A DNA stretch of 64,000 nucleotides, from positions 14,097 through 78,096 of the forward strand of contig JAYVZE010000200.1 in the NCBI GenBank assembly GCA_043783625.1, written 5' to 3'. The notes beneath the pieces are model-generated. The model ran no database searches. It saw only the letters and a program-made list of their open reading frames with translations, and was not told the origin of the DNA. The translations under genes were made by a program, and so were the position numbers. This DNA is from Blastocatellia bacterium. Lineage in GTDB: Bacteria; Acidobacteriota; Blastocatellia; RBC074. This document shows, piece after piece, positions 2-57,212 of this stretch (its first letter is position 1; the number at the start of each line of letters is the position of its first letter).

Positions 2-502
2 CTGGCGCGGGCTGATGCCGGCCCCGCTGATTTGCATTTTGAGCCGATGAACATTGGTGATTTATGCACACGGGTAGTTGATTATTTAGCTCCGTTGGCA
101 GAAGTAAAAAATCAATCACTCGCTTACCAATCCGATTCAAAAGCTGAGCTGACCATCAAAGGAGATGCGCAGCGGCTGAAACAAATGTTGTTGAATTTAT
201 TGGATAACGCGATCAAATATACGCCGGGCGGCGGGCGCATCATGCTGACGTTAATGAAAGATAGCAAGGATGCAGTAATGATTATTTCCGACACCGGGCG
301 CGGCATTCCAACCGAAGACATTCCGCATATTTTTGAACGCTTCTTTCGGCACTCGCGTAGTACCAGCGATAAAACCGTCCAGGGTTCAGGGCTTGGGCTA
401 TCCATCGTCAAATGGATTGTCGAATCACATCAGGGAACCATCATCGCCGAAAATAATTCGGCTGGTGGCACGAAATTCACGGTGCGCTTACCGCTTCAAT
501 AA
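2..502 (+). CDS. sensor histidine kinase, C-terminal HATPase_c domain (5' truncated by window edge)
   Basis: Open frame from nt 2. Translation carries N-box LLDNAIKYT, G1 DTGRGIP, F-box FERFFR and G2 GSGLGLSIV motifs of HATPase_c. Confidence 0.8.
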   Translation: MARADAGPADLHFEPMNIGDLCTRVVDYLAPLAEVKNQSLAYQSDSKAELTIKGDAQRLKQMLLNLLDNAIKYTPGGGRIMLTLMKDSKDAVMIISDTGRGIPTEDIPHIFERFFRHSRSTSDKTVQGSGLGLSIVKWIVESHQGTIIAENNSAGGTKFTVRLPLQ

Positions 503-504
503 AA

Positions 505-579
505 ATGCAGAAGCCCGCACGTAGTAAGGGCGTCTTTTTAGATCGTAAAGATGCCCTTACTACGTGCGGGCTTCTGCAT
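505..579. repeat. REP-like palindromic element family 1 (arms ATGCAGAAGCCCGCACGTAGTAAGGGCGTC), between convergent genes
   Basis: Near-perfect 30 nt inverted repeat read directly. A second copy lies at 3804..3912. Confidence 0.75.
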
Positions 580-1890: not shown

Positions 1891-1955
1891 GGTGTGCCAG
1901 CATCCTGCTGGCAAATATTCATGAAGAAAAGCTGCCGGCAAGATGCTGGCGCACC
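1891..1955. repeat. inverted repeat containing GCNNGCAGGATGCNNGC hairpin motif (family also at 6204..6366, 25386..25444, 57107..57210)
   Basis: Arms ggtgtgccagcatcctgctggcaa and ctgccggcaagatgctggcgcacc are near reverse complements. Each arm carries an internal hairpin. Confidence 0.6.
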
Positions 1956-1970
1956 AATTGAAAGTTTGCT

Positions 1971-2753
1971 CTACAAAAATATTCGCCTAAAATTCGCGGT
2001 GGTAATCGCTGCGATTTCTTCAAAACTGACGTTCTGCAAAGCTGCCAATTGCATCGCAGTTTCTTTCACGAACGCAGGTTCATTGCGCTTTCCGCGATAC
2101 GGCACAGGCGCGAGGAACGGGCAATCCGTTTCGATCAATAAACGATCTTTCGGAACCGAAGCCGCTACTGCTCGCAAAGCATCCGCATTTTTGAACGTGA
2201 TAACTCCTGAAAAAGAAATCATAAAACCCATCGCCAACGCCGCATCTGCGAGTGTTTGTGTTCCGGTAAAGCAATGAATAATGCCCCCACGTTTTTTCAA
2301 ATCGTGCTGAAAATAAGCATCGCGCAAAATCTCTATCGTATCTTCTTCGGCGTCGCGGGTATGAATAATGACGGGCAAATCCGCCTGCAACGTCAGTTCT
2401 AATTGACGCCTGAAAACTTGTTGCTGCACTTCGCGCGGGCTGTGATCGTAGTAATAATCCAAGCCGATTTCACCCCAGCCAATCACTTTCGGATGCTGCG
2501 CCAGAGTCACAAATTTTTGTTCGAGAGCTTCATCGTATAAACTGGCTTCGTGCGGATGAAGACCGATGGCGGCATAAATGAAATCGTGTTTTTCAGCCAG
2601 AGCGATGCCAATATCCAATGACCCTTTGGCAACATCGCTCCCGGCAATTTCGAGAAATAATTCAACTCCGGCGGCTTGAGCGCGAGCAATTACGTCGTCA
2701 CGATCTTCATCAAAAGCGGGCGTATCTAAATGAGCGTGTGAATCTATCAACAT
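1971..2753 (-). CDS. tatD: TatD family metal-dependent hydrolase (DNase)
   Basis: MLIDSHAHLD start motif, conserved His/Glu/Asp TIM-barrel metal ligands, about 260 aa. ATG at 2753 preferred over TTG at 2786. Confidence 0.8.
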   Translation of the reverse strand: MLIDSHAHLDTPAFDEDRDDVIARAQAAGVELFLEIAGSDVAKGSLDIGIALAEKHDFIYAAIGLHPHEASLYDEALEQKFVTLAQHPKVIGWGEIGLDYYYDHSPREVQQQVFRRQLELTLQADLPVIIHTRDAEEDTIEILRDAYFQHDLKKRGGIIHCFTGTQTLADAALAMGFMISFSGVITFKNADALRAVAASVPKDRLLIETDCPFLAPVPYRGKRNEPAFVKETAMQLAALQNVSFEEIAAITTANFRRIFL

Positions 2754-2846
2754 ATCTATGACAATTTCCTGAAACTTTGAGAGCAAAATAAATGATGTGA
2801 TGAACTATCAATGTACACGACGCAATGCGAATCAAGAAGATTTTTT

Positions 2847-2960
2847 CCACGAAGGACACGAAGGGACATGAAGAAAAACATTTTTTTAGTGACCAAAAAA
2901 TTACAGAGATTTCTCTTTATTGGTGATGTCTTTCTTCGTGTCCCTTCGTGTCCTTCGTGG
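2847..2960. promoter_or_regulatory. 30 bp near-perfect inverted repeat (CCACGAAGGACACGAAGGGACATGAAGAAA) flanking a 54 bp AT-rich spacer in the divergent tatD/mqnA promoter region
   Basis: Arms 2847..2876 and 2931..2960 are reverse complements with one mismatch. Lies between divergently transcribed genes. Confidence 0.5.
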
Positions 2961-2991
2961 ATGATAAATTCTTTTCCTGCTTGTTAACTAT

Positions 2992-3804
2992 ATGCGAATT
3001 GCCGCTTCAACTTATCTCAATTCTGCGCCGTTGATTTACAGTTTCACTTCCGGCATGCAGCGCAATCGCGCCATTTTTATTGGCGATGCGGCTCCCGCTC
3101 GTTGTGCGCAAATGTTAGCGAACGGGCAATGCGACATCGCGTTAATTCCGGTGATTGAATACCTGCGAATCCCGAACCTCCGCATCATCCCGAACGTGGC
3201 CGTAGCCTCTAAAAACCGGATCGAAAGCGTCATCCTTGCCACCAAATGCGAACCAAATAAAATTTCAAAAATCGCCTTGGACAGCTCTTCGCGCACTTCG
3301 CAAACCTTAGTCAAAATTTTGATGGCAAACCGGTTTCATCACCAGCCAACTTATTGCGAACGACTTCCTGATCCCGGCTGCGCGAATATGTTTGAGGGAA
3401 CCGACGCCGCGCTGGTGATTGGCGATCCCGCTTTTCACGTCAAAGCCAACGCCGAACGGCTTCATTTGAAGATTTACGACTTAGCCGAAGAGTGGAGAGC
3501 CTTAACCGATTTGCCCTTTGTCTTCGCCGTCTGGGTCGTGCGCGAAGATGCTTTGCCGGAATATCATCGCTTCAAATTAGATTTTGAAATGGCGAAACGC
3601 GAAGGATTGGAACGCGCTCACGAAATCGCGGAACAATACGCGACAGTACTGAATAAATCTTCTGCTGAATTATTTTCTTATCTCACGAAAAATGTGAACT
3701 ACGAATTAGACGGCGAAAATTTAGCAGGGCTGCGCGAATATTTCCGAGAAGCGTTTGAATTGCGATTGGTTGAGCAACAGAAAGAATTATTATTTGTCTC
3801 CTAA
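2992..3804 (+). CDS. mqnA: chorismate dehydratase MqnA (futalosine pathway of menaquinone biosynthesis; MqnA/MqnD family)
   Basis: Motifs LNSAPLIYSF, DIALIPV, SRTSQTLVKIL, LVIGDPAF and DLPFVFAVWVVRED match the MqnA periplasmic-binding-like fold family. Confidence 0.65.
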   Translation: MRIAASTYLNSAPLIYSFTSGMQRNRAIFIGDAAPARCAQMLANGQCDIALIPVIEYLRIPNLRIIPNVAVASKNRIESVILATKCEPNKISKIALDSSSRTSQTLVKILMANRFHHQPTYCERLPDPGCANMFEGTDAALVIGDPAFHVKANAERLHLKIYDLAEEWRALTDLPFVFAVWVVREDALPEYHRFKLDFEMAKREGLERAHEIAEQYATVLNKSSAELFSYLTKNVNYELDGENLAGLREYFREAFELRLVEQQKELLFVS

Positions 3805-3912
3805 TGCAGAAGCCCGCACACAGTAAGGGCGTCTTTTCTCCACAAGAATTATAGATATTTTTTAGTGCCTTCAAAATGTGAAGGCGCCCTTACTGCGTGC
3901 GGGCTTCTGCAT
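3804..3912. repeat. REP-like palindromic element family 1, copy 2, with inner hairpin gccttcaaaatgtgaaggc
   Basis: Arms atgcagaagcccgcacacagtaagggcgtc and ggcgcccttactgcgtgcgggcttctgcat. Same sequence family as 505..579. Confidence 0.75.
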
Positions 3913-3996
3913 TCTTTCTGCAAAAATAATTGTCAGTTGATAATGGGTAGTTGATAATGTTCCTCGCCAAACTTCTTTCCCCGGAGTTCAAAATTT

Positions 3997-6201
3997 ATGA
4001 ATAAAATTCTTCATCTCGCGCTCTTCATTTTATTGTTTCTTTCCCCACTTCAGGCGCAAACCAAGCGCGGATTCCTGCCCGAAGACCTCTATCAACTCAA
4101 GGACGTTGCCGATGCCAACATTTCTCCTGACGGCTCCCGCGTCGCCTACACCGTCACCGAAGTCAGTGCCGATCATTCGCGCAACGTCACGCACATCTGG
4201 TTAGTCAAAACCGAAGGCGGCGAACCAACCCGCTTAACAAAAGATGCTGCTGATGAAAGCACTCCGCGCTGGTCACCGGATGGAAAATGGCTCGCGTATT
4301 ATTCACAAGATGCTTTATGGGTCATCAACCCTGATGGCGGAAAGTCGCTGCATTTGCCGGATGGGAATTGGGTGAAGACGCCAAATACCGAACCACAAAA
4401 AATCACTCGTGTCGCCCGGACAAATTTCTTTTTTACCAAAGCCGGAGAAAGCTTCACCTGGTCGCCTGACAGCAAACAAATTGCGTTTGTGAGTGATCCG
4501 ATCATTCTGCCTCCAAACCCAATGATGGAGCGGCTGACACGTGGTTTAAGTCAGGACGAATTGATGCGGCTTCCGACCGAAACCAGAAATACAATTTTGA
4601 AAGCGCAGGGGAAATCTGCCGAACAAATTTCCGCGCTGGAAGCGGATTACAAAGCACAACAGGCGAAAGCCAGCAACTACACGACTGATGTCAAAGTCGT
4701 GACGCGGTTGCAGTACAAATCACGGACTTCGTTTTCAGACAATTTGCAATCCCACATTTTTATTGCAGACGTAGCAACGAAAGAACTGCGCCAATTGACG
4801 AGTGGAAATTATGCCGAGCATTCCATCAACTGGTCTCCGAAAGGCGATGAAATTGTCTTCGTCTCCAACCACGAACCCGATCCCGACAAAATTAACAACA
4901 CCGATTTATTTGTAGCCAACGTCACCACAGGCGCAGTGCGACAACTGACCAAAACAAAGGGCTGCGAATGGCAACCCGTGTTTTCGCCGGATGGCAGTCA
5001 GATTGCGTATCTGGCTACGACACGCGATGTGACGACGATTGATAGTGTGGCAGAAGATGCACATGCTTGGGTGATTTCAGCAAATGGTGAGAATGCGAAA
5101 GAATCCAGATCGCCGAAGAATGAGGATACTGGGCGGACAATGACAGTGAAATGGTGGAATAAATCTGAACCTGCTTTTCTTACAAATCACATGGGGCAAA
5201 CATATTTTTATGTAGGAATACCATTCCGCCAGCTCTTGGATAGTGCATTTGCCCAAATAAATAATTTCTCCGTATCTAATGGAATAAAATTTGTAAACGT
5301 CATTAATCATGATACTAAAATTCCAGAGGTATACTGTAAAACTTTATCAACTCCGCTAAACTCACATTTAAATCCGATTTCAGTAAAATCTTTATCAAGC
5401 CACAACAAAGCGCTCCAAGATTTGCTTCAGTTCGCTCCAATGATCGAATTTCAATTTCCAAACGAAGGTTTTGAGATAGAAGGCTGGCTTGTGCTTCCGA
5501 TTAATCTCGATGAGAAGAAAAAATATCCGGTGATTCTTTATATTCACGGCGGGCCGCACGGGATGCACGGGTACAGTTTCAATGCGACGGTGCAGGCTCT
5601 CGCGGCGAAAGGTTATGGCGTACTGCTCATCAATCCGCGTGGCTCATCCGGCTACGGACAAAAATTTTCGGATGGATGCGTGAATGATTGGGGCGGCGGC
5701 GATTACCGCGATTTGATGCGCGGCGTAGATGTCGCGCTGGAAAAATTTTCGTATCTCGACAAAGACCGCAGGGGCGTGATGGGCGGCAGCTACGGCGGCT
5801 ATATGACGAATTGGATTGTCACGCAAAACGACCGTTTCAAAGCCGCGATTGCCTCCGCGAGCCTGTCAAATCTGATCAGTTTTTATTCGACTTCGCTCTA
5901 TCAGGATTTGGTTCACGCCGAATTCAACGGGATGCCGTGGGACAATTACGAAAAATTGTGGGATCGTTCGCCGCTCAAACATATCAAAAATGTGAAGACG
6001 CCGACGATGCTCATCCACGGCGAAAACGACAACGATGTTCACATCACGCAAGCCGAAGAAATGTACACCGCCCTGAAAATGCGCGGCGTAGACACAGTGC
6101 TGGTGCGCTACCCGCGCGAAGGTCACGACATCCGCGAACCGAAACATCGCGTGGATAATTTGCAGAGAAATTTGGATTGGTTTGAGAAATATTTGAAGTA
6201 G
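3997..6201 (+). CDS. secreted S9 family serine peptidase (prolyl oligopeptidase / acylaminoacyl-peptidase type) with N-terminal TolB-like beta-propeller
   Basis: Signal peptide, SPDG propeller repeats, catalytic GGSYGGYM (GxSxG) nucleophile elbow, Asp and His in the C-terminal alpha/beta-hydrolase domain. Confidence 0.8.
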   Translation: MNKILHLALFILLFLSPLQAQTKRGFLPEDLYQLKDVADANISPDGSRVAYTVTEVSADHSRNVTHIWLVKTEGGEPTRLTKDAADESTPRWSPDGKWLAYYSQDALWVINPDGGKSLHLPDGNWVKTPNTEPQKITRVARTNFFFTKAGESFTWSPDSKQIAFVSDPIILPPNPMMERLTRGLSQDELMRLPTETRNTILKAQGKSAEQISALEADYKAQQAKASNYTTDVKVVTRLQYKSRTSFSDNLQSHIFIADVATKELRQLTSGNYAEHSINWSPKGDEIVFVSNHEPDPDKINNTDLFVANVTTGAVRQLTKTKGCEWQPVFSPDGSQIAYLATTRDVTTIDSVAEDAHAWVISANGENAKESRSPKNEDTGRTMTVKWWNKSEPAFLTNHMGQTYFYVGIPFRQLLDSAFAQINNFSVSNGIKFVNVINHDTKIPEVYCKTLSTPLNSHLNPISVKSLSSHNKALQDLLQFAPMIEFQFPNEGFEIEGWLVLPINLDEKKKYPVILYIHGGPHGMHGYSFNATVQALAAKGYGVLLINPRGSSGYGQKFSDGCVNDWGGGDYRDLMRGVDVALEKFSYLDKDRRGVMGGSYGGYMTNWIVTQNDRFKAAIASASLSNLISFYSTSLYQDLVHAEFNGMPWDNYEKLWDRSPLKHIKNVKTPTMLIHGENDNDVHITQAEEMYTALKMRGVDTVLVRYPREGHDIREPKHRVDNLQRNLDWFEKYLK

Positions 6202-6203
6202 TC

Positions 6204-6366
6204 GGAGCGCCAGCATCCTGCTGGCTCCGCGAGCGCGTGCAACGCCGCTCGCGTAACGTGGCGAGGAGTGCGAGTGATTTGCCAGTTAGCTCCCTCACCA
6301 AAAGCATTTGCATCGCTCGCGCTTGCAAACGCAGCAAGCAGGATGCTTGCGCTCCCAGTACGCTCC
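6204..6366. repeat. compound palindromic element carrying two copies of the GCNNGCAGGATGCNNGC(G/A)CTCC hairpin motif, between convergent genes
   Basis: ggagcgccagcatcctgctggctcc at 6204..6228 and gcaagcaggatgcttgcgctcccag at 6331..6355, with further internal hairpins. Confidence 0.6.
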
Positions 6367-7793: not shown

Positions 7794-7864
7794 GACAAAA
7801 AATAGAGTGCGGAAAGTAAGAAATTTACTTTCCGCACTCTATTGTATCATCAAGAATCTATCAG

Positions 7865-7938
7865 AGTCAGTACTACCTGCGGTAGCGGGTGGAAGTAGCG
7901 TTGATGCTCACCACCCGCTACCGCAGGTGGTACTGACT
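7865..7938. repeat. REP element family 2 (arms AGTCAGTACCACCTGCGGTAGCGGGTGG), doublet hairpin; same family as the REPs flanking the RAYT gene
   Basis: 28 nt inverted repeat with 18 nt spacer immediately downstream of the receptor stop codon. Confidence 0.75.
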
Positions 7939-11539: not shown

Positions 11540-12838
11540 CTAAACAATTCCGGCTGAGATTCCAATTGCTGCCGGACGCTCTTCGGCTTTGTGCTGACGA
11601 TATTGGCTGGCGCGATAAACAGCTAACGGATCAATCGCACCACCGGCGTTTTGCCGTGCTTTCGCAATGATCGGCGCAACATCCATCGTGAACGCTTGCT
11701 TCAAAGTTTGCAGCGCAACCATGGCATCGCCTTTTTCCTGTGCTTCACGCAGGGCATCGCGATCTACCAAATGTGCCTGAACGAAGGCGCGCTGCAGTTC
11801 GACGGCACTCATCATCAATGATTCAATCGGGTCGGTGACGTTATGCGATTGATCCAGCATGTACGCTGGGTTGAAATCGGGCGTGCCGTCCAATTCTGCG
11901 TCTACGAGTTCGTTGAAAATCAAAAATAATTGGAATGGTTTGATCGAACCTGCGTCCAAATCATCATCGCCATATTTGCTGTCGTTGAAATGGAAGCCAC
12001 CGAGCTTACCCGCTTGAATTAAACGTGCGACGATCATTTCGATGTTGACATTCGGCGCGTGATGACCGAGGTCAACTAAGCATTGCGCTTTTGGCCCCAG
12101 TTGCGTAGCGCAAAAATAATTTGTCCCCCAATCATTAATCACAGTCGAGTAAAACGCGGGTTCATACATTTTGTGTTCCATAAACACGCGCCAATCATCC
12201 GGCAATGCTGCATAAATTTCGCGCATACTTTCAAGGTAACGTTCCAATGTTTTGCGAAAATTTTGTTGCCCTGGAAAATTCCCACCATCGCCAATCCACA
12301 CCGTATGCGCTTTGGAGCCGAGTGATTTTCCAATCTCAATGCACTCAATATTATGCTCAACAGCTTGCGCACGTACCGCAGCATCAGGATGCGTCAGGCT
12401 GCCGAATTTATAAGAAAATTTTTGCTCGGCCTGATCCTGAAATGTATTGGAATTCATCGCGTCAAAAGTTAAGCCGCGTTCATTCGCAAAAGATTTCATC
12501 GTCGCTACATTGTCAGGTTTATCCCACGGAATGTGCAGCGAAACCGCCGACGTAGCACGAACTAATTGATTAATCGTCGCGCAGTCTGCCAATTTTTCAT
12601 AAATCCCGCGTGGTTCGCCAATCCCTGGAAAACGAGCAAAGCGCGTGCCGCCCGTGCCTACGCCCCACGAAGGCACTGCGACCTGAAACGCTTGCGCACG
12701 TGCGGTGAGGTCTTCGATGTTGAGGTTACGGCGTTGTAATTGTTTGCCGAGATGTTCGTAATCTTCTTCGAGCCAGGGTTTGGCTTTATTATTTTGTTCG
12801 GCAATAAAATTTTCGTTAATTTCAAAAGGTGCAGTCAT
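11540..12838 (-). CDS. L-rhamnose isomerase (xylose isomerase-like TIM-barrel, Pseudomonas stutzeri L-RhI type)
   Basis: About 430 aa, conserved VAVPSWGVGTGGTRFARFPG and HIPWDKPD segments. Adjacent to kinase and aldolase. Alternative start at 12865. Confidence 0.6.
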   Translation of the reverse strand: MTAPFEINENFIAEQNNKAKPWLEEDYEHLGKQLQRRNLNIEDLTARAQAFQVAVPSWGVGTGGTRFARFPGIGEPRGIYEKLADCATINQLVRATSAVSLHIPWDKPDNVATMKSFANERGLTFDAMNSNTFQDQAEQKFSYKFGSLTHPDAAVRAQAVEHNIECIEIGKSLGSKAHTVWIGDGGNFPGQQNFRKTLERYLESMREIYAALPDDWRVFMEHKMYEPAFYSTVINDWGTNYFCATQLGPKAQCLVDLGHHAPNVNIEMIVARLIQAGKLGGFHFNDSKYGDDDLDAGSIKPFQLFLIFNELVDAELDGTPDFNPAYMLDQSHNVTDPIESLMMSAVELQRAFVQAHLVDRDALREAQEKGDAMVALQTLKQAFTMDVAPIIAKARQNAGGAIDPLAVYRASQYRQHKAEERPAAIGISAGIV

Positions 12839-12887
12839 AATTTCATTCCATATATCCGCCAACATTAAGTGCAGATGTTGATCTACA

Positions 12888-12963
12888 CCACCCGCTACGA
12901 CAGCGGTTACTGTGGCGTTGCAGTCGTGGCAGTTGAGTCAGTACCACCTGTGGTAGCGGGTGG
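12888..12963. repeat. REP element family 2 (degenerate left arm, intact right arm) flanking the RAYT gene
   Basis: Right arm agtcagtaccacctgtggtagcgggtgg, left arm ccacccgctacgacagcggttactgtgg. Confidence 0.65.
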
Positions 12964-12974
12964 TAGATTTTCCA

Positions 12975-13484
12975 TCAATCAAACTCTGGCAGATCATCAC
13001 CCTGCCCATTAAGAACATAATCAACGGCACGCTCTACACTCCGTTCATTCCATAAATAGCGAGTACTTCCTTTGTCCGCCCAAGGGCTTCGCTTAAGCAA
13101 CCATAGTCCATCTTGTTTCAGTTGTCTTGTAGCATTTGCTTTCAGCGCATTGAGCGCAAGCTCAACAGATTTTTCTCCGATACAAACAACAACATGAACA
13201 TGATTGGTACGGATGTTAAGTGCATAAATGTCCCATTTTCGGAAACCACACGTTTCGCGGACAGCAGTCTCAACTGAAGAACGATGAGTCGCCTCTAGTT
13301 TTACAGGTTCACAAACGAGCTTGCCTTCATTGTATTCGCGCCACTTCTCATTAGTCGGAATATATGGCGAACGATATTTATTATTAAATCGATTTATTGA
13401 GCCGCGTTCGTCACCATGTAGCCACGTTCCGTAACAACGAAACGTGATTAAGTAGGCAAGTGGGATTTCCGTGTTATTCCACAT
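12975..13484 (-). CDS. REP-associated tyrosine transposase (RAYT), IS200/IS605-like HUH Y1 transposase
   Basis: 169 aa, HUH motif TNHVHVVV, catalytic Tyr context RAVDYVLNGQ, flanked on both sides by family-2 REP palindromes. Confidence 0.75.
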   Translation of the reverse strand: MWNNTEIPLAYLITFRCYGTWLHGDERGSINRFNNKYRSPYIPTNEKWREYNEGKLVCEPVKLEATHRSSVETAVRETCGFRKWDIYALNIRTNHVHVVVCIGEKSVELALNALKANATRQLKQDGLWLLKRSPWADKGSTRYLWNERSVERAVDYVLNGQGDDLPEFD

Positions 13485-13543
13485 GATTTGTTTATGTCAG
13501 TGTTGTCGCTACCGATGATACCGACTCTAACTATGCTGCAACG

Positions 13544-13628
13544 ATTGAGTCAGTACCCGCTGCGGTAGCGGCGGGTTTTCTTTAGACAAGAGCTGCCACC
13601 CGCTACCGCAGGTGGTACTGACTCAATC
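13544..13628. repeat. REP element family 2 doublet flanking the RAYT gene
   Basis: Arms gagtcagtacccgctgcggtagcggcggg and ccacccgctaccgcaggtggtactgactc with extended outer pairing gattgagtcagtac / gtactgactcaatc. Confidence 0.7.
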
Positions 13629-13629
13629 G

Positions 13630-15819
13630 CTATCGCAAAAACCCGTCCTGCAATCCACCATCTACCGGAATCACATGCCCGGTAGTCTTACCCAAACGCT
13701 TCGTCACCAGCAAAAATATTGCTTCGGCTTGATCGTCGGGTTCAATGGCAACTTGCGTGAGCGTACGCTTGGCGTAAAAATTCGCCAGTTTATCGCGCAA
13801 CGTTTCCGTATCTTCGTCTTCGCTGAATTTAATTTCATATTTCGCCAGCGAAGCGATCACGCGATCACGCGGGAACATCGTGCTTCCCTTCACTACCGTA
13901 GCAGGCGCAACCGCATTCACGCGCACGAGCGGCGACATTTCAATCGCCAGTTCACGCACTAAATGATTCGCGGCGGCTTTGCTGGTGTCGTACGCTAGGC
14001 TTCCCTTTTTCGCTACGACGGCGTTTGCACTGGTGGTCAGCACAATGTTGGAAGGCAAGCCTTGCCGCTTGAAAACTTTGTTCGCTTCGTCAGCAACGAT
14101 GTACGCGCCCGTCACGTTAATGGCGAAAGTTTTATCCCATAAATTATCGGGGATATATCCAGCTTTATCAGGCGGAACAAAAATTCCGGCAGTTACGACT
14201 ACGGCATCAATTCCGCCGTAAGCGAGCATCACATCCGCGAACATTTTCTGCACGCTTTCACGATTTGTGATGTTGCAGGCAAGGCCAATCGCAGGGCCGC
14301 AATTGCTGATGCCTGTGCCAGCCACGCCAATGCCTTCGCCGTATTGCTTGATAATTTCCTGCGCAGTTTCTTTGGCGGAAGTTTCATCAAGGTCTACGCA
14401 AACGATGTGTGCACCTTCTTTGACCAAACGATGCGCAGTAGCTTTGCCGATGCCCGCGCCTGCGCCGATGACGACGTGGATTTGACGATCCAATTCTTTT
14501 TCGGCGGGCATTCGTCGCAGCTTGGCTTCTTCGAGCAACCAATATTCGATGTCGAAAGCTTCCTGCTGATCCATCGCTTCGTATTGGTCAATGGCCTCTG
14601 CGCCGCGCATCACTTCAATCGCGCAGTTATAAAATTCGGCAGCCACGCGAGATTCACTTTTGTTTTTTCCAAATGCGATCATGCCGATGCCAGGGATTAA
14701 AACTACGGTTGGATTAGCGTCGCGCATCGCGGGCGAATCGGGATGTTTGCAGCGGTCATAATACGCCGCGTAATCTTTGCGATATTGCACGATGCCCGTT
14801 TCGATCAATGTTTTCAAAGCTCCGATGTCACCGCTGACAGGATTCCAGTCAATAAATAACGGCTTGATCTTGGTACGCAAAAAATGATCGGGACACGACG
14901 TGCCGAGTTCAGCAAGGCGCGGCGCGTCTACGCTATTCACAAAACGCAACATTTTCGGATCGTCCTGCACAGTGCCAATCATGCGTTTATTTGACGAAAC
15001 CTTTCCGCGCAGCCAGGGCAACAAATCAACTAATAATTTTTGACGTTCGGCTTCGGGTAACGCCTGATGTTTTTGTCCGCCAAAAGTTTTTTCGCCTTTA
15101 TCTTTTGATTCGATATAACGCGCCGCCGTGTCAATAATTTCCAGCGCAGTTTCATAACAAGTCTTGTCGTTATTCGCCCACGAAGACATGCCGTGATGAC
15201 CAAGCACAATGCCTTTGGCTTTTGGGTTGTCGGCGATCATTGATTCAATAATTAAGCCAATATCAAAGCCCGGACGTTGCCACGGAATATATAAAACTTC
15301 GTCGCCAAAAATTTCTTTCGTCAAACGTTCCTGATTGACAGAAGCAGCGATGGCGATGACGGCGTTCGGATGCAAATGGTCTACGTGCTTGAATGGCACG
15401 AACGTATGGAGCGGCGTATCAATCGAACAAGCGCGTGGATTCAGGTTATATACACAATGATTGTAAAGCGGAACCATCGCGTCTTCGATTTCCGTCTTCG
15501 CGCCTTTGTTCGGATGATTCGTGTACAGCGGTTTCATCGCGCGAACTTTGTCGAGATAGAGCGAAGCAAAGCCGTCGCACTTCGCCGTGCGCAAATCACC
15601 GCCGGAGCCTTTGATCCATAAGACTTCAACGTCTGCGCCGGTGAGCGGGTCTTTTTCCATCAGCTTTGACGAAGTGTTGCCGCCGCCCGTATTCGTCAGC
15701 GTCAAATCATCGCCGAGCCGATTGGAGCGATAGACGAGACGATCTGCGCCGGATAATTTGTCGGCTTCTTCGTCTTTCCAAAGATATTGTACGTGTTGAT
15801 AAGAATCTTTTTTACTCAT
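13630..15819 (-). CDS. bifunctional rhamnulose-1-phosphate aldolase / short-chain alcohol dehydrogenase (class II aldolase-adducin domain fused to SDR)
   Basis: N-terminal aldolase domain starting MSKKDSYQHVQYLWKD with GGGNTS motif. C-terminal SDR with Rossmann GxGxxG and YxxxK-type active site. ATG at 15819 has GGAGGC 13 nt upstream. Confidence 0.7.
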   Translation of the reverse strand: MSKKDSYQHVQYLWKDEEADKLSGADRLVYRSNRLGDDLTLTNTGGGNTSSKLMEKDPLTGADVEVLWIKGSGGDLRTAKCDGFASLYLDKVRAMKPLYTNHPNKGAKTEIEDAMVPLYNHCVYNLNPRACSIDTPLHTFVPFKHVDHLHPNAVIAIAASVNQERLTKEIFGDEVLYIPWQRPGFDIGLIIESMIADNPKAKGIVLGHHGMSSWANNDKTCYETALEIIDTAARYIESKDKGEKTFGGQKHQALPEAERQKLLVDLLPWLRGKVSSNKRMIGTVQDDPKMLRFVNSVDAPRLAELGTSCPDHFLRTKIKPLFIDWNPVSGDIGALKTLIETGIVQYRKDYAAYYDRCKHPDSPAMRDANPTVVLIPGIGMIAFGKNKSESRVAAEFYNCAIEVMRGAEAIDQYEAMDQQEAFDIEYWLLEEAKLRRMPAEKELDRQIHVVIGAGAGIGKATAHRLVKEGAHIVCVDLDETSAKETAQEIIKQYGEGIGVAGTGISNCGPAIGLACNITNRESVQKMFADVMLAYGGIDAVVVTAGIFVPPDKAGYIPDNLWDKTFAINVTGAYIVADEANKVFKRQGLPSNIVLTTSANAVVAKKGSLAYDTSKAAANHLVRELAIEMSPLVRVNAVAPATVVKGSTMFPRDRVIASLAKYEIKFSEDEDTETLRDKLANFYAKRTLTQVAIEPDDQAEAIFLLVTKRLGKTTGHVIPVDGGLQDGFLR

Positions 15820-21127: not shown

Positions 21128-21210
21128 AAGTTGCGTAAGAACTTTACGAAGAGGCGTAGCTCAATTCCCAAAATCGTTATAGCTTTCAGAAAATGAACTT
21201 TCAATCAAAG

Positions 21211-21392
21211 CTCCAACGGAGCGAAATACAATAGCCCAGGGTGCAACCCTGGGTAGGATCAGAAATAGAATCCAAGCCCTGAAGGGGCGAAATAAATTAT
21301 TGCGCCCTTTCAGGGCTTGATTTTTTCCGTGCAATCAACCCAGGGTTGCACCCTGGGCTATTGTATTGCCACCCCTTCGGGGTTCTGTTCGG
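21211..21392. repeat. about 180 bp nested-palindrome element (family 3), copy 1
   Basis: Outer IR atagcccagggtgcaaccctggg / cccagggttgcaccctgggctat, inner IR gccctgaaggggcg / cgccctttcagggc, terminal ccaacggagcg. Second copy at 24091..24286. Confidence 0.7.
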
Positions 21393-21450: not shown

Positions 21451-22695
21451 TCACCACGGCATCAATCCCATTTGTTTTTTACCAAGCTCCGATAAATCTT
21501 CAAGCGTAGCGCGATTTTTAAAATTTACCTCGTAATCTTCCGCCGCAAAATCCGGCGAACTTTTTCCCGCTAAAAAGCTCTCAGCCTGACGCGTCAAAAA
21601 TCGCGCATTCTTCTCGCACCACGGCGCAGCACCGATGTAAATCACGTTGCTGTAATTGATGCCGCGATGTTCATTTTCGACGGCGTGGATCACGTCGGGA
21701 TGCCACCAAACGGTGTCGCCGGGTTCGACAGTTGGGATGCTGATTTCGGCTTGTAATAAAAGTTGATGCCATTGCGGATACGCCGCCAACGCACGTCCTG
21801 CCGCCGCTCCGCACAAATCATCCGGCGCGACATCGGGTTGCAACGCACGTAATAACAACCACGCCATGCTTCGCGCAATCGGAATAATTTTCAACGTACC
21901 ATCGCCCGGCCCTTGCTTCGTCAAAGCCGTCCAGCCTTGAAACGTACGAAACATGCTGCACACCGCAGGCGAAGGAATTTCTTTCGTGTTGGTGCGTCCT
22001 TCCGCACGAAACGGGTCGTACTTATTTACGTCGCCGAAAAAAACTTCGTGAAAGACGCGATGAAAACTGGGGTCGCACCAACGCTCTATCGAACCGCCAT
22101 CACAATGCGCCGACAGTCCTAACGATTTGTCGCCCGGTTCGCGGCGACGTATGCGGTCGGCGTAATTGCATTGCCGATCAGGATCAAATTCCATCGTTCC
22201 ATCGGCATGACTGAAATCCCACAAACGATTGAGCCAGCTTCGCGTCGCTGCTAAATTTTCATGTTGCCGCGCCTGCATCTGCGGACATGACCAATACAAA
22301 CCAAAAATCTGCGGTCGCCCTGATGCCAGCGCACTGAAATATTTATCCAGTCCAACTTTGTCTTTTGCTTTTTCGTAATAATTATTTTCGTCAATGTAAC
22401 GACCGATTTCTTCACTCCAAGCCGTTGCTTGTTGAGGAGCAAAGACTCCGCGAATGACTACACAGCCGCGCCGTCTGATGCGATTTTTTTGTGCTTCGCT
22501 AATCGTGCCTGACGACAAATCATGATAGGAAATGTTTGGTACCGCATCTGCGCCTTCGGCTTTGACCGCCGCTACTTCATCAGTCAGCCATTCATCCATC
22601 TGCGCCATTCGAGCAGCGCAATCCGGCATCTGCGCGAGCAGCGCAGCCTTCGCGTCAATTACAGCTTGCTTGGGGTTATTCATCCAGTTTTGCAT
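21451..22695 (-). CDS. hypothetical protein, possibly DUF1479/YbiU-like (double-stranded beta-helix oxygenase-like fold)
   Basis: 414 aa cytoplasmic protein. WHPDVIHAVE-type His motif. Family assignment from memory only. Confidence 0.35.
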   Translation of the reverse strand: MQNWMNNPKQAVIDAKAALLAQMPDCAARMAQMDEWLTDEVAAVKAEGADAVPNISYHDLSSGTISEAQKNRIRRRGCVVIRGVFAPQQATAWSEEIGRYIDENNYYEKAKDKVGLDKYFSALASGRPQIFGLYWSCPQMQARQHENLAATRSWLNRLWDFSHADGTMEFDPDRQCNYADRIRRREPGDKSLGLSAHCDGGSIERWCDPSFHRVFHEVFFGDVNKYDPFRAEGRTNTKEIPSPAVCSMFRTFQGWTALTKQGPGDGTLKIIPIARSMAWLLLRALQPDVAPDDLCGAAAGRALAAYPQWHQLLLQAEISIPTVEPGDTVWWHPDVIHAVENEHRGINYSNVIYIGAAPWCEKNARFLTRQAESFLAGKSSPDFAAEDYEVNFKNRATLEDLSELGKKQMGLMPW

Positions 22696-22701
22696 AAAAT
22701 T

Positions 22702-24039
22702 TTATATACCAAAAATATTCCGGTCTAAAAATTCATTGCGGAATTTTCCTTGTGGGTCGTATTGCTTCAGCAAATTTTGAAAATCAGCAAAGCGTTCATA
22801 ACGCGATTTTAATTGCGCGGGCGTGACTGTGAACAATTTGCCCCAATGCGGACGTATGCCAAACGGAGCCAGTTCTTTTTCAATCACAGGAATCAATTTC
22901 ATCACCGCAGCCGTGTTTTGTTTCCACGTAAAATGAATCGCGACGCTGGTTTGGTTGTAAGCAGTACTCATCCAAAGATTATCCGCAGCAATCGTACGAA
23001 TTTCTGAAATCATAATATCTTTCGACCATTTGTTGCCCAGGCGATTGATCGCGCTCAAAGCCGCATAAGCATTGCGGAGCGGAACAAAAAATTCTGACTG
23101 TAATTCTTTGCCGCTGCTGGGTGTAAAATTCATGCGGAAGTGCGGCAACCGTTCATGCCACGGGCCAGGCACGCCCATTTGCTCTGTGCAATTAATGGCG
23201 TCGAGTTCGGCAATCGGATGCAGATTTTTCTTCGCTAATTTTGCGCCAAAAAACTCCGGCTTCGGATTGATTGCACCACCGTCAATTCGGCTTTTGACCC
23301 AGACTTCGCTGACATTATTTTTCAGCCAATTTGTGAATAAACTGACGCTGTAGCTGCTCGACATAATCGCTTCAAAATTGCGCTCTAATTCACCGAACGG
23401 CAAATTTTCATAAACGTCTTGCCGCACCTGAAACGTTGGTTGGATGTCGAGCGTGACTTTTGTGACGACACCAATGCCGCCGAGGTTCACGACTGCGCCG
23501 TTGAATTGCTCGCTGTCTTTTCCGCGCGTTAAATTAACGACTTCGCCAGAGTCCGTGACAAACTCAATGCCCGCGACTGCCGAAGCCAAATTGCCATTTT
23601 TAATTCCTGATCCGTGCGTTGCTGTCGCGCAGGCTCCGGCGACAGAAATGTGCGGTAACGAGGCCAGGTTATGCAGCGCGTAGCCTTTGTTTACGAGGTA
23701 TTCCGCCAAAGTACCATAACGAATACCTGCTTCGACAGTGACGGTATTCGCTTGCGTATCAAGTGAAACAACCTTCGCCATTTTTTTCGTGGAAACAAGA
23801 TTATGCGGAGAATCAGCAATACGATTGAAGCAATGCTGTGTGCCTAACACGCGGAGCTTTGGTGTTTTCTTCACCAGTTCCTGCACCTGTTCGAGCGATT
23901 CAGGATAAAAAACATTTTCTGTGCTGTAGGTTAAATTCCCTGCCCAGTTTTTCAGTTTCTCACCTTTGGCCCAGGCACGGGAAAAAACCGCGTCTGCGAT
24001 AGAAGCGGATGACATTTTTAGAAACGTTCGTTTTCTCAT
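22702..24039 (-). CDS. FAD-linked aldonolactone/alditol oxidoreductase (FAD_binding_4 plus ALO C-terminal domain), Tat-type signal
   Basis: MRKRTFLKMSSASIA twin-arginine-like N-terminus followed by NWAGN motif typical of gulono/arabinono-1,4-lactone oxidases. ATG at 24039. Confidence 0.65.
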   Translation of the reverse strand: MRKRTFLKMSSASIADAVFSRAWAKGEKLKNWAGNLTYSTENVFYPESLEQVQELVKKTPKLRVLGTQHCFNRIADSPHNLVSTKKMAKVVSLDTQANTVTVEAGIRYGTLAEYLVNKGYALHNLASLPHISVAGACATATHGSGIKNGNLASAVAGIEFVTDSGEVVNLTRGKDSEQFNGAVVNLGGIGVVTKVTLDIQPTFQVRQDVYENLPFGELERNFEAIMSSSYSVSLFTNWLKNNVSEVWVKSRIDGGAINPKPEFFGAKLAKKNLHPIAELDAINCTEQMGVPGPWHERLPHFRMNFTPSSGKELQSEFFVPLRNAYAALSAINRLGNKWSKDIMISEIRTIAADNLWMSTAYNQTSVAIHFTWKQNTAAVMKLIPVIEKELAPFGIRPHWGKLFTVTPAQLKSRYERFADFQNLLKQYDPQGKFRNEFLDRNIFGI

Positions 24040-24090
24040 AGCTGACCTGTTGATTTGCGATAGCATTTCAAAAAATGCTCTTCCGAATAG

Positions 24091-24286
24091 AGTCCCAACG
24101 GGACGCCGATAACATAGCTCAGGGTGCAACCCCGGGTAAGATCGGAACATATAAAGTAGCCCTGAAGGGGCGACATAAAAAATCTGTGAATATCTCGCCC
24201 TTTCAGGGCTTGCGCAAAAATCTCAACGCTTCCCGGGGTTGCACCCCGGGCTATTACATTCCGCTCCGTTGGAGCTTTGTTCGGAG
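24091..24286. repeat. about 190 bp nested-palindrome element (family 3), copy 2, same orientation as copy 1
   Basis: Outer IR atagctcagggtgcaaccccggg / cccggggttgcaccccgggctat with compensatory A:T to G:C change relative to copy 1. Inner IR gccctgaaggggcg / cgccctttcagggc. Terminal cccaacggg / ccgttggag. Confidence 0.7.
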
Positions 24287-25385: not shown

Positions 25386-25444
25386 GCGCACTACGTTTGC
25401 GTAGCTTCGCTCGCAAACGGCAGGCAGGATGCCTGCACTCCCAG
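25386..25444. repeat. hairpin cluster ending in ggcaggcaggatgcctgcactcccag (GCAGGATGC hairpin family)
   Basis: Stem gcaggca/tgcctgc around GGA loop followed by CTCCCAG, plus upstream hairpins ctacgtttgcgtag. Confidence 0.6.
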
Positions 25445-25445
25445 C

Positions 25446-26615
25446 TTATTGTTCAACTTTTTGCTTTGTGACTTCTGGTCGTGAAAAATTTGGTGCGGCC
25501 AGCGTCTGTGTTTTCAAATTGCGTGAACGTTGATATTCCGCGAACGCTTTTTGTTGCTCTGCCGCATTGCCTATTGTTCTGTAAGCTTGCGCCAATTGAA
25601 ACCACGCGACTTCATTGTTGCTGTTTATCGAAATTGCTTTGCGCAGCGGCGTGATCGCCTGCTCCGCGTGGTGCAACGCAACTTCTGTACGTCCTAAGCC
25701 AACCAACGCATCTTCAAAATCAGAATAATATTTCACAGCCAGTGCAAACAATTCTTTCGCCTGATCGAAGCGTGTAGCCTTGCGATGTAATTCGCCCGCT
25801 TCATACGCCGCATTTGCATTCGTCGGGTCAAGTTGCAATTCCTGTTCGAATTCTTTCAGTGCTTCCGCTTCGGCAGTGGCATCCTGTGCGACACGCGTTA
25901 ACTGCACGCGTCCGAGACGAAAATGAATGCCGGGATGATTCGGGTTTTTCTTGAGAACTTCGCGGTACGCACCAAGCGCAGATTCCAATTGCCCCTGACT
26001 TTCGTGCGCTTCGCCTGCCGCCAACTGTAGCCAGAGCGAATCCGGTGCGACCCGTGAGATTTTCACAGCGGAAAGATACGCATAATTCGCAAACAGACGA
26101 CTGGCATGATACAGAATTTCAGGGTCTTTGGGGTACAAACGAGTTAATTCCAAAGCAATTTCGACAGCTTTGTCGTCTTGTTGCAAACCCGTATACGCAC
26201 GCTGCAATTGCAATCCACTCGAACGCTTCAACGCCGCATCAGTCGTGCGCCTGAAACCTTTTTGCAAGATCGGAACGGCTTCCTGATATTGCCCTAATTC
26301 AGAAAGTGACATCGCCAGCAACACATCAATATTTGACAACGTTGGTTTTAATTTCATCGCCTGACGGAGTGCCGGAACTGCCTGTTCAAATTTTCCAGAT
26401 TGAAAATAAATCAGTCCGAGCCGCGCGTGTGCCTCAGCCATCGTCGGAGCCAGTTCGCGGATTTTTTCGTACGCCTGCGCCGCTTCATCATAACGCCCTG
26501 ATGCCAAAGCTTTTTCTCCGGCCTGCGCATACCGCTGCAACTGCGCATCGTTATTTGCCTGCGCCAGTCCGCACACAGGTAAGAAAAAAATAAAAATAAA
26601 TATCCTTGCTAACAT
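25446..26615 (-). CDS. secreted tetratricopeptide (TPR) repeat protein
   Basis: Signal peptide. Repeated 34-residue A/Y/L-rich helical repeats (AxxAYxxxG patterns). Confidence 0.7.
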   Translation of the reverse strand: MLARIFIFIFFLPVCGLAQANNDAQLQRYAQAGEKALASGRYDEAAQAYEKIRELAPTMAEAHARLGLIYFQSGKFEQAVPALRQAMKLKPTLSNIDVLLAMSLSELGQYQEAVPILQKGFRRTTDAALKRSSGLQLQRAYTGLQQDDKAVEIALELTRLYPKDPEILYHASRLFANYAYLSAVKISRVAPDSLWLQLAAGEAHESQGQLESALGAYREVLKKNPNHPGIHFRLGRVQLTRVAQDATAEAEALKEFEQELQLDPTNANAAYEAGELHRKATRFDQAKELFALAVKYYSDFEDALVGLGRTEVALHHAEQAITPLRKAISINSNNEVAWFQLAQAYRTIGNAAEQQKAFAEYQRSRNLKTQTLAAPNFSRPEVTKQKVEQ

Positions 26616-55336: not shown

Positions 55337-55339
55337 AGT

Positions 55340-55456
55340 GATTGCGGAGTGCGGATTTGGGATTGCGGGTTCAAGAATTGGACTTACAAAAATTTTTCTC
55401 CAATATTTGCGGAGCACAGTTTTTTTACCGCAACCCACAATCCCAAATCCGCAATC
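55340..55456. promoter_or_regulatory. 32 nt imperfect inverted repeat containing doubled GATTGCGG half-sites, in the boxC-boxB intergenic spacer
   Basis: Arm gattgcggagtgcggatttgggattgcgggtt at 55340..55371 pairs with accgcaacccacaatcccaaatccgcaatc at 55427..55456. Extra ttgcggag copy in spacer. Confidence 0.5.
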
Positions 55457-55458
55457 AA

Positions 55459-57081: not shown

Positions 57082-57106
57082 ATTTCTTCACTGGGCGCGT
57101 CTTTTA

Positions 57107-57210
57107 CTGGGAGTGCCCGCATCCTGCGGGCGAATCCGTACTCAGGGAAACCTTTTTATCGCAGGTAGTTGCTCGCCACGGCTTCGCCCGCAGGATGCGG
57201 GCGCTCCCAG
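57107..57210. repeat. inverted pair of GCAGGATGC hairpin motifs (ctgggagtgcccgcatcctgcgggcg / cgcccgcaggatgcgggcgctcccag)
   Basis: Exact reverse-complement arms with 53 nt spacer between ligase and boxC genes. Confidence 0.65.
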
Positions 57211-57212
57211 TA

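Follow-up and report, generated by a model that had tools for sequence, protein, structure and literature searches.

A probable class 3 TnpAY1 REPtron resident between rhamnose catabolism genes of an uncultured Blastocatellia bacterium

What kind of element is a small transposase-like gene that is enclosed by hairpin-forming repeats and lodged between two genes of L-rhamnose catabolism? The question is raised by a 64,000 nt stretch of DNA (hereafter the window) from an uncultured soil acidobacterium of the Blastocatellia, Pyrinomonadaceae-like in its affiliation. Between the genes for the rhamnose isomerase (rhaI) and the bifunctional aldolase (rhaEW), all on the minus strand, lies a 169 aa open reading frame (ORF), an arrangement borne out by ORF reading and by the profile scores, and positions 12888-13628 enclose this gene together with four copies of a repetitive extragenic palindrome (REP). 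An original prediction, made from the sequence alone, described the interval as an intact REPtron, in which a REP-associated tyrosine transposase (RAYT) gene is bracketed by its cognate REPs. We find that the element is most probably an intact, resident REPtron of the class 3 TnpAY1 type, and that it is not a canonical RAYT system.

The REP unit comprises a 9 nt single-stranded 5' tail (GAGTCAGTA), an 8 bp stem with one T.G position and a 4 nt loop, and its consensus is GTCAGTA-CCRCCTGC-GGTA-GCGGGYGG. It had been presented as a 28 nt palindrome of one family standing on both sides of the gene; flanking by a single family is confirmed, but the 28-mer is a tail followed by a hairpin and is not palindromic as a whole. 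With up to 3 mismatches allowed, the 28-mer is matched at four sites in the window (7865+, 7911-, 12936+ and 13596-), and no match was obtained in 100 dinucleotide shuffles of the window. Four copies, labelled A to D in Table 1, bracket the gene, and two more copies, 5 kb away, are paired in a doublet. Along the coding strand the order is rhaEW, a forward REP, an inverted REP, the ORF, an inverted REP, a forward REP in degenerate form, and rhaI. The stop codon of rhaEW is found 5 nt before REP D. REPs D and C constitute a doublet with a 20 nt spacer that resembles a REPIN (REP doublet forming hairpin), and the segment 13540-13632 that holds them folds as DNA at -36.1 kcal/mol (z = -9.75). The remote doublet, located between the stop codon of a TonB-dependent receptor gene (7948) and an intrinsic terminator (7843-7801), folds at -37.4 kcal/mol (z = -11.6), and single units fold at -7.4 to -10.3 kcal/mol (z = -2.7 to -3.7), again as DNA. 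REP A was not detected by an nhmmer model of the repeat, and no Rfam family matches the REP at gathering thresholds.

Gene and repeat are found together well beyond this locus. Homologues with 59-78% identity occur in different neighbourhoods at the comparison loci L123, L124, L125, L126, L018, L040 and L046. The homologue in L124 adjoins a tetratricopeptide repeat protein gene, that in L125 lies between RuvC and Calx-beta genes, that in L126 lies between SpoIIM and enoyl-CoA hydratase genes, and those in L018, L040 and L046 have other contexts. At each of these loci REPs of the same family are located upstream in gene orientation and downstream in inverted orientation, 2-45 nt from the ORF. 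The position and orientation of REP D are the same at all of the loci named, and a downstream inverted flank of the REP B type is present at all homologous loci examined. Tandem REP arrays stand beside the gene in L018 (3 copies upstream and 8 downstream) and in L124 (6 downstream), which suggests local amplification. The arrays span 1221-1634 and 2190-2324 in L018, 1709-1942 in L124 and 2462-3331 in L046, and their periods are about 55 nt for the 8 copies, about 40 nt for the 6 copies, and about 166 nt for further repeats.

More distant relatives of the gene are flanked by altered repeats. A homologue with 58% identity (L052) is flanked by a REP that has co-varied with it, GTCAGTA-CCATCCGC-GTTA/GTCA-GCGGATGG. 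A homologue with 51% identity (L020, 650-1500) has near-perfect terminal inverted repeats (TIRs) of about 75 nt in place of REP hairpins; the genome concerned (CAVOQJ) also carries the GTCAGTA REP, and a TIR-type arrangement is therefore found within the same protein family. Because the REP flanks are fixed whatever the context, and because the REP co-varies with the protein subfamily, gene and REP have on sequence grounds the hallmark of a cognate enzyme-substrate pair, that is, a REPtron. The original proposal that inverted cognate REPs enclose the gene holds at every examined homologue of at least 59% identity, in unrelated contexts.

The sequences TNHVHVVV and RAVDYVLNG, on which the transposase call had been based, are both found exactly in the ORF. 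They place the HUH motif at T93-N94-H95-V96-H97 and the catalytic tyrosine, Tyr156, within YVLNGQ. Profile and fold comparisons both do place the ORF with HUH Y1 transposases, although the proposed comparison with RAYT and IS200 TnpA profiles gave a divided outcome. The Pfam model PF01797 (Y1_Tnp) was modestly passed (27.9 bits against a gathering score of 23, E 2.7e-6, residues 65-136), whereas the scores for both NCBIfam models, NF047646 REP_Tyr_transpos for RAYTs (23.7 bits, cut-off 80) and NF033573 transpos_IS200 (25.3 bits, cut-off 55), are below their cut-offs. In an alignment of 49 homologues down to 36% identity (lengths of 161-184 aa, profile of 166 positions), H97 and Y156 never vary, conservation is at least 90% at H95 and Q161, and the N-terminus is conserved at residues 8-29 (PLAYLITFRCYGTWLHGDERGS).

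A PDB search with the single sequence gave chance matches only (a double-stranded RNA-binding domain and OspA), and the 49-sequence profile matched IS200-family TnpA only, weakly (E 0.09-0.8) and aligned over the HUH strand, so that structure prediction and Foldseek were needed. The AlphaFold2 model obtained from the 49-sequence alignment (pLDDT 89.4, pTM 0.82) has the topology beta1, alphaA, alphaB, beta2, beta3 (HUH), alphaC, beta4, alphaD (Tyr156), with H95-V-H97 on strand 95-101 and Y156 on helix 147-159. When this model was searched against PDB, ranks 1-30 were held exclusively by IS200/IS605 TnpA structures (2f4f, 2xm3, 2vih, 2a6m, 2ec2) or the E. coli RAYT 4er8, with E 2e-5 to 2e-3, TM to target of 0.5-0.67 and 10-15% identity; the values for 4er8 were E 1e-4, TM 0.52 and 10-14% identity. 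Matches below rank 30 were unrelated folds with E >0.01. Given the profile score, the fold matches and the conserved H97, Y156, H95 and Q161, the protein is a bona fide but distant HUH/Y1 enzyme, approximately equally far from IS200 transposases and from canonical RAYTs.

TnpAY1 proteins were divided by Quentin et al. 2018 (BMC Genomics 19:475, PMC6006769) into class 1 (IS200/IS605), class 2 (RAYT/TnpAREP) and a small class 3. All members of class 2 carry Y---NP, and its REP-associated subclasses have a 5' GT[AG]G foot (PMC6006769). The description of class 3 as a rare group drew on 24 proteins, with hosts among Planctomycetes, Acidobacteria and Proteobacteria; examples are ABJ83664/ABJ83822 of Solibacter usitatus, ADG69454 of Planctopirus limnophila and ABQ56422 of Legionella pneumophila (PMC6006769). 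Its members have NHVH, Y----Q (YV[VI][AENY]EQ), extended N-terminal conservation (profile of about 155 aa) and a median length of 178 aa, and 'atypical' hairpins whose foot is CnGA stand beside their genes, S. usitatus having about 600 copies of them (PMC6006769). Among the class 3 REPs listed is CAGAG-CCGC-GA-CC-GTTA-GG-GA-GCG of S. usitatus (Table S1, PMC6006769). In the words of that study class 3 'resembles both IS and REPtrons', where IS stands for insertion sequence, and three close copies are found in S. usitatus (PMC6006769).

We file the window gene as class-3-type because the class 2 features, when tested, were lacking and most class 3 features were present. The NHVH motif is found as N94-H95-V96-H97 and Y----Q as YVLNGQ, in which position +4 is G and not E in this subfamily, with YVLDEQ or YVLHEQ in some homologues; the extended N-terminus and the length (166-position profile, 161-184 aa) are also matched. 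Y---NP is absent, with proline at +5 in 0 of the 49 homologues, and so is a 5' GT[AG]G foot, the foot being GTCAGTA and a GTAG string occurring only across the loop and 3' arm. Inverted flanking REPs that are dispersed extragenically are shared by class 2 and class 3 and do not discriminate between them.

The resemblance to class 3 (Quentin et al. 2018) covers NHVH, Y----Q, the N-terminal conservation, a length of about 170-178 aa, a distribution in Acidobacteria and Planctomycetes, and, apart from the foot (CAGT and not CnGA), a gene flanked by several 'atypical' hairpins with dispersed copies elsewhere. As in class 3 REPs, the hairpin has a 5 nt foot, a 4 bp outer stem, a 2x2 irregularity, a 2 bp inner stem and a tetraloop, and in a by-eye comparison the window REP (CAGTA-CCRC-CT-GC-GGTA-GC-GG-GYGG) and the S. 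usitatus REP are identical in register at about 16 of 25 positions. Homologues with 42-45% identity from Planctomycetota, Phycisphaerae and Acidobacteriota are themselves flanked by archetypal class 3 REPs with CAGA or CCGA feet, namely TCAGAG-CCGG-GA-GC-GCAA-GC-GA-CCGG in a Planctomycetota metagenome-assembled genome (MAG), TCCGAG-CCCGCAGCGCCAGCAAGGGCC in a Phycisphaerae MAG and GCAGAAG-CCCGCGCGTAAGCAAGGGCGG in an Acidobacteria MAG. Unlike class 3 as described, the window REP has an irregularity of C-G plus an invariant T.G instead of GA/GA and a GGTA loop, the W motif is mostly WN, and the subfamily extends to 4,891 clusters at 90% identity and to at least 76 Blastocatellia species, which makes it very large beside the 24 proteins of a class described as rare. 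Systems of this kind have been on record since 2018, and the subfamily and its hairpin appear to be undescribed in the literature searched.

A scan of one genome per GTDB species with the query GTCAGTACNNNCTGYGGTAGCGGNNGG located the repeat at at least 120 loci in at least 76 assemblies, with at most 5 loci per assembly among the matches listed, per-genome counts being lower bounds. The gene is present at 6 of the 120 REP loci listed, and the source genome of the window is not among the assemblies with listed loci. The taxon labels of the 76 assemblies are Acidobacteriota, Blastocatellia, Pyrinomonadaceae or 'Chloracidobacterium', with the one exception of Acidimicrobiia. The locus concerned, L018 (CAWBAT010000008.1), labelled 'uncultured Acidimicrobiia', holds Blastocatellia-type REP arrays and a transposase gene with 70% identity, and the label of this bin may be wrong. 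The REP family had been supposed to be lineage-specific; it spans an entire acidobacterial class and no single narrow lineage, with at least 76 Blastocatellia/Pyrinomonadaceae MAG species involved.

An nhmmer model made from these copies gave 264 matches at E <=1 and 225-230 at E <=1e-3, and the latter matches were used for the counts that follow. The family-wide consensus is GTCAGTA-CCRCCTGC-GGTA-GCGGGYGG-GT, and positions that were free in the search pattern are still nearly fixed. At stem pair 16-31 there are 102 copies with G-C, 99 with A-T, 12 with G.T and 6 with A.C (chi-square 150), while stem pair 17-30 is C-G in 206, T-A in 4, A-T in 3 and G-C in 2; at pair 19-28 the T.G irregularity is conserved in 222 of 225. 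Only the A-T stem type is present in 36 genomes, only the G-C type in 28 and both types in 9, and the occurrence of one type in most genomes indicates concerted evolution within genomes, as read from these alignments. Many copies form convergent doublets with outward tails, most often separated by a spacer of 18-20 nt. ORFs of at least 100 aa, assigned greedily, leave 15% of bases outside, yet 70% of 230 repeat matches fall there. Together with the doublet 5 kb from the gene, this distribution agrees with the expectation that the 28-mer would also occur away from the gene and mostly in extragenic DNA.

A word-indexed protein search returned the 4,891 clusters at E <=1e-3, and the best 120 of them are all full-length, 64-100% identical and, where named, from Acidobacteria or Pyrinomonadaceae. 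When representatives at 50% identity were searched exhaustively, 2,490 proteins were obtained at E <=1e-3, 1,345 at 1e-10 and 114 at 1e-30, with representatives at 40-45% identity from Phycisphaerae, Planctomycetota and Acidobacteriota. Many homologues are annotated by JGI as 'REP element-mobilizing transposase RayT'. The window contains one copy of the gene, and a tblastn search of 72,556 plasmids (PLSDB) yielded zero relatives.

A metagenome scan with RhaI returned 80 loci, at about 65 of which rhaI comes straight after rhaEW, across a gap of 3-220 nt that contains neither this gene nor this REP. Because of these empty junctions the element is taken to be an insertion into an ancestral rhaEW-rhaI junction, and the original view that it had entered a rhamnose gene string is upheld. 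Locus L123 has a minimal form at the same site, in the order rhaEW, REP, gene, inverted REP, rhaI. Between the window and L123 the amino acid identity, dS (synonymous divergence) and dN/dS (ratio of non-synonymous to synonymous divergence) are 93.3%, 0.93 and 0.04 for rhaEW, 78.1%, 1.21 and 0.11 for the transposase gene, and 90.7%, 1.08 and 0.05 for rhaI, dS values near 1 being partly saturated. These figures show a gene that has diverged in step with its neighbours and under purifying selection. Because it is syntenic and has a dS like theirs, the insertion predates the split of at least two species. A recent insertion was considered and rejected on the synteny with L123 and on dS.

The junction has received other sequences as well. 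The rhaEW-rhaI spacers of L127-L145 (at about 3780-4000) form a recurrent landing site, with unrelated palindromic doublets in L129, L130, L131, L132 and L145, and only 14-17 nt separate rhaEW from rhaI in L135 and L141. The larger gaps of L169 and L138 were inspected for other Y1 genes and revealed other contents: L169 has a 1.29 kb insertion (2711-4001) with a 207 aa ORF and, from translations alone, a putative Phd/YefM-type antitoxin and RelE/ParE-type toxin, and L138 has other repeats.

A resident class 3 REPtron has to be weighed against other explanations of the same locus. If the element were an autonomous IS200/IS605-like IS, the REP-gene-REP unit would transpose as such, and the dispersed REPs would be non-autonomous derivatives comparable to miniature inverted-repeat transposable elements (MITEs) or palindrome-associated transposable elements (PATEs). 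The junction does occur in three states among relatives, being empty, filled by a REP doublet (L127) or filled by REP-gene-REP (the window and L123), and homologues with 59-71% identity keep the same REPs throughout although their neighbourhoods are unrelated. The published remark that class 3 resembles IS as much as REPtrons, and the three close S. usitatus copies (PMC6006769), would suit such an element too. TnpA proteins of IS200/IS605 elements (IS608, ISDra2, IS200; PDB 2VJV, 2XM3, 2F4F) give the best fold and weak sequence matches, the glutamine after the catalytic tyrosine in the Y----Q motif points to class 1, and the recognition of subterminal hairpins with a guide-like foot is presumed in both. 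Even so, an IS is quite improbable here: the gene is syntenic in two species, with the dS of its neighbours and a dN/dS of 0.11; it occurs once in 64 kb, without tnpB and without matches among the plasmids; its ends are inverted copies of one hairpin and not the distinct left and right ends of IS200/IS605; its score is well below the NCBIfam IS200 cut-off; and REP loci far outnumber gene loci. Still less is to be said for a canonical class 2 RAYT/TnpA(REP) with a lineage-specific REP, which we hold to be extremely unlikely. The architecture is that of a REPtron, and the RAYT systems of E. coli (YafM, PDB 4ER8) and Pseudomonas (REPIN-RAYT) share with the window an HUH/Y1 fold, inverted cognate REPs enclosing the gene, extragenic dispersed doublets (REPINs, or bacterial interspersed mosaic elements, BIMEs), a REP family proper to each transposase subfamily, and a gene of few copies that is inherited vertically under purifying selection. 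The 4er8 structure is among the fold matches, and the JGI annotation of many homologues is RayT. However, the protein has YVLNGQ with the conserved Q161 and no proline where class 2 has Y---NP, it falls below the NCBIfam RAYT cut-off, its REPs lack a GT[AG]G foot, its identity to 4er8 is 10-14%, and 4er8 is equalled or surpassed as a fold match by IS200/IS605 TnpA structures. What stands of the original RAYT identification is therefore an HUH/Y1 REPtron and not the canonical class. The acidobacterial 'TIRYT' group (Di Nocera et al. 2013) was also tried as the family of the window gene and rejected, as TIRYT proteins carry Y---NPV and are visibly a different family.

It could also be argued that the hairpins are regulatory structures of the host in RNA or DNA (mRNA stabilisers, antisense terminators or protein sites), with a domesticated gene whose link to the hairpins is incidental to mobility. 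Unrelated palindromic doublets in the rhaEW-rhaI spacers of L129, L130, L131, L132 and L145, the resemblance of REPs B and C to intrinsic terminators on the antisense strand, the extreme conservation of the REP sequence across 76 species, and a gene that is stably placed under purifying selection would all be in keeping with this. As a full account it is scarcely credible, since the foot, the loop and the T.G position are conserved in sequence and not in structure alone, as they would be in a site recognised by a protein, repeat types change along with protein subfamilies, tandem arrays and doublets beside the gene indicate local amplification, and the repeat has no Rfam match. A regulatory role and a REPtron are compatible, and both can hold. 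Such a dual role has also been proposed for the REPs of E. coli.

Several points weigh against a resident REPtron of class 3 type. L127 (WBZS01000002.1) carries at the same junction only a REP doublet with a 17 nt spacer (3904-3979) and no gene. Nucleotide identity is 87-90% between L127 and L123 and 83-86% between either and the window, and on the resulting tree, ((L123, L127), window), one gene loss would be most parsimonious. Both arms of the L127 doublet have a GTGA loop and not GGTA, which could reflect hairpin-templated conversion or replacement by a separately inserted REPIN. Taken with the homologues in differing contexts, the state of L127 speaks for some mobility or loss at the level of the unit, and the partial saturation of dS blunts the comparison with L123. 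Although the geometry of the hairpin matches that of class 3 and its copies are dispersed, the foot is CAGT(A) instead of CnGA(G), and the subfamily motif is YV[LIVM]NGQ and not YV[VI]xEQ; membership of class 3 would rest on motif signatures, REP geometry and the homologues with archetypal REPs. The single-copy status of the gene and the abundance of the REP are extrapolated from 64 kb and from lower-bound counts elsewhere. Binding, cleavage and mobilisation of the REPs are, as for any class 3 protein, what we infer by analogy.

A bolder interpretation would treat the rhaEW-rhaI junction as a natural three-state series (empty, REP doublet, REP-transposase-REP) and, taking this together with a hairpin sequence that hardly varies across an entire bacterial class, the subfamily as a living intermediate between IS200-type IS and domesticated RAYTs. 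This interpretation is tentative and, in our opinion, rather unlikely. If it were true, the gene-bearing unit would still be gained and lost as a block at REP boundaries, REPINs would arise directly from REPtrons by gene loss, and class 3 would be abundant and not rare, offering a tractable model for the origin of REPs and RAYTs.

For a class 3 REPtron, a working scheme can be drawn from IS608 and ISDra2 TnpA and from E. coli TnpA(REP). The enzyme would bind the folded REP hairpin on single-stranded DNA (ssDNA), for example on the lagging-strand template, with recognition by way of the foot and the stem irregularity. The strand would be cut beside the hairpin, with H95 and H97 holding a metal and Tyr156 forming a 5'-phosphotyrosine intermediate. 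Rejoining of the strands would then excise, copy or insert REP singlets and doublets, so that the REP population would be maintained while the enzyme gene itself would stay in place. By analogy with these systems it is reasonably likely that the enzyme mobilises these REPs in vivo.

The coordinates of the element, of its neighbours and of other repeats in the window are collected in Table 1.

Table 1. Positions of the transposase gene, adjoining rhamnose genes, REP copies and other repeats in the window
Feature	Position	Strand	Remarks
Transposase gene	12975..13484	-	169 aa; HUH/Y1 ssDNA transposase-like, probably class-3-type TnpAY1, 'RAYT-like'
rhaEW, bifunctional rhamnulose-1-phosphate aldolase/short-chain dehydrogenase-reductase (SDR)	13630..15819	-	NF006189, 1081 bits against a cut-off of 634; upstream neighbour
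rhaI, L-rhamnose catabolism isomerase	11540..12838	-	TIGR02629, 706.8 bits against a cut-off of 646.75; downstream neighbour
REP D	13596..13624	-	Exact 28-mer match; upstream of gene and in its orientation; 5' tail GAGTCAGTA then hairpin
REP C	13547..13576	+	Inverted relative to D; diverged; stem CCCGC/GCGGG, not CCACC/GGTGG (two compensatory pair changes)
REP B	12935..12965	+	Downstream of gene, inverted relative to D; starts 10 nt past stop codon
REP A	12887..12913	-	Degenerate; right arm GCGGGTGG retained, left arm and tail mutated; read from sequence
Remote REPIN doublet	7864..7938		Units 7864-7892 (+) and 7911-7938 (-); 18 nt spacer
Intrinsic-terminator-like hairpin	7801..7843	-	19 bp stem then T run; strong; after receptor gene
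Second repeat, inverted doublets	501..579; 3803..3916		ATGCAGAAGCCCGCACGTAGTAAGGGCGTCTTT; CAGA foot
Acido-Lenti-1 (RF01687) matches	21209..21253; 21339..21384; 24232..24276	-; +; +	38.8-43.4 bits against a gathering score of 37
Inverted repeat	2834..2973		48 nt arms, built on CCACGAAGGACACGAAGGGACATGAAG
Further repeat	1891..1960; 6198..6361; 25424..25446; 57105..57212		GGAGCGCCAGCATCCTGCTGGC; often inverted doublets
Inverted doublet	55339..55457		GAGTGCGGATTTGGGATTGCGG; arms 25-30 nt, 60 nt spacer

Two of the gene starts differ from those of the longest ORFs. The start of rhaEW was set at 15819, following an external 729 aa gene call and homologues, instead of 16014, and that of rhaI at 12838 (MTAPFEI), by comparison with L123 and L127, instead of 12865. 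Because rhaEW starts at 15819, an apparent 142 nt overlap between rhaEW and the adjoining GH106 gene disappears. With the corrected starts the spacer from rhaEW to the ORF is 145 nt and that from the ORF to rhaI is 136 nt. The outer genes of the string are a GH106-family gene upstream of rhaEW and the TonB-dependent receptor gene downstream of rhaI.

An effect of the insertion on operon continuity had been thought possible and is unsupported. A pattern scan of 13630-12838 found no terminator-like site on the sense (minus) strand, REPs B and C being terminator-like on the antisense strand only, and the insertion is old and stable. REPs acting as sense-strand terminators that split the operon were considered and rejected, because the terminator-like sites are antisense only and the arrangement is conserved across species. 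Read-through is likelier given the lack of a sense terminator, the retention of the arrangement in a second species and the tolerance by this spacer elsewhere of unrelated doublets and even of a putative toxin-antitoxin pair, and the element is probably co-transcribed with the rhamnose genes in an unbroken operon. The hairpin after the receptor gene probably ends the transcription unit of GH106, rhaEW, the transposase gene, rhaI and the TonB-dependent receptor. For the rhamnose operon the element therefore appears harmless.

Other palindromic repeats are scattered through the window (Table 1). The second repeat, ATGCAGAAGCCCGCACGTAGTAAGGGCGTCTTT, is very much like GCAGAAGCCCGCGCGTAAGCAAGGGCGG, the repeats found on either side of a class-3-type homologue with 42% identity in L211, and the source genome probably holds a second class 3 REP family whose transposase gene lies outside the window. 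The RF01687 matches, one inverted pair among them, occupy the two intergenic regions flanking a two-gene block (21451-24150) and seem to behave as a dispersed REP-like repeat and not as single small RNA genes. The inverted repeat built on CCACGAAGGACACGAAGGGACATGAAG has a family member in the rhaEW-rhaI spacer of L129 (3893-3999). The style of the GGAGCGCCAGCATCCTGCTGGC repeat, with a 6 bp GC stem and the loop ATCCT, recalls S. usitatus REPs of Table S1 (PMC6006769), and no associated transposase was found for it within the window. The GAGTGCGGATTTGGGATTGCGG doublet belongs to yet another family. With several other palindromic repeat families populating these genomes, caution is needed in annotation.

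The element adds to a little-studied group of HUH/Y1 repeat systems an intact example of class 3 type, for which the cognate hairpin is defined, its covariation is documented and the insertion site is dated. A group described as rare would on this assignment be widespread in uncultured soil Blastocatellia. With the gene and its REPs, a class 3 enzyme could for the first time be tried in vitro on concrete substrates, and the recurrent 'transposase' call inside a catabolic operon finds its explanation in annotation terms. For evolutionary purposes, the rhaEW-rhaI junction offers a locus at which empty, REPIN-only and REPtron states can be compared.

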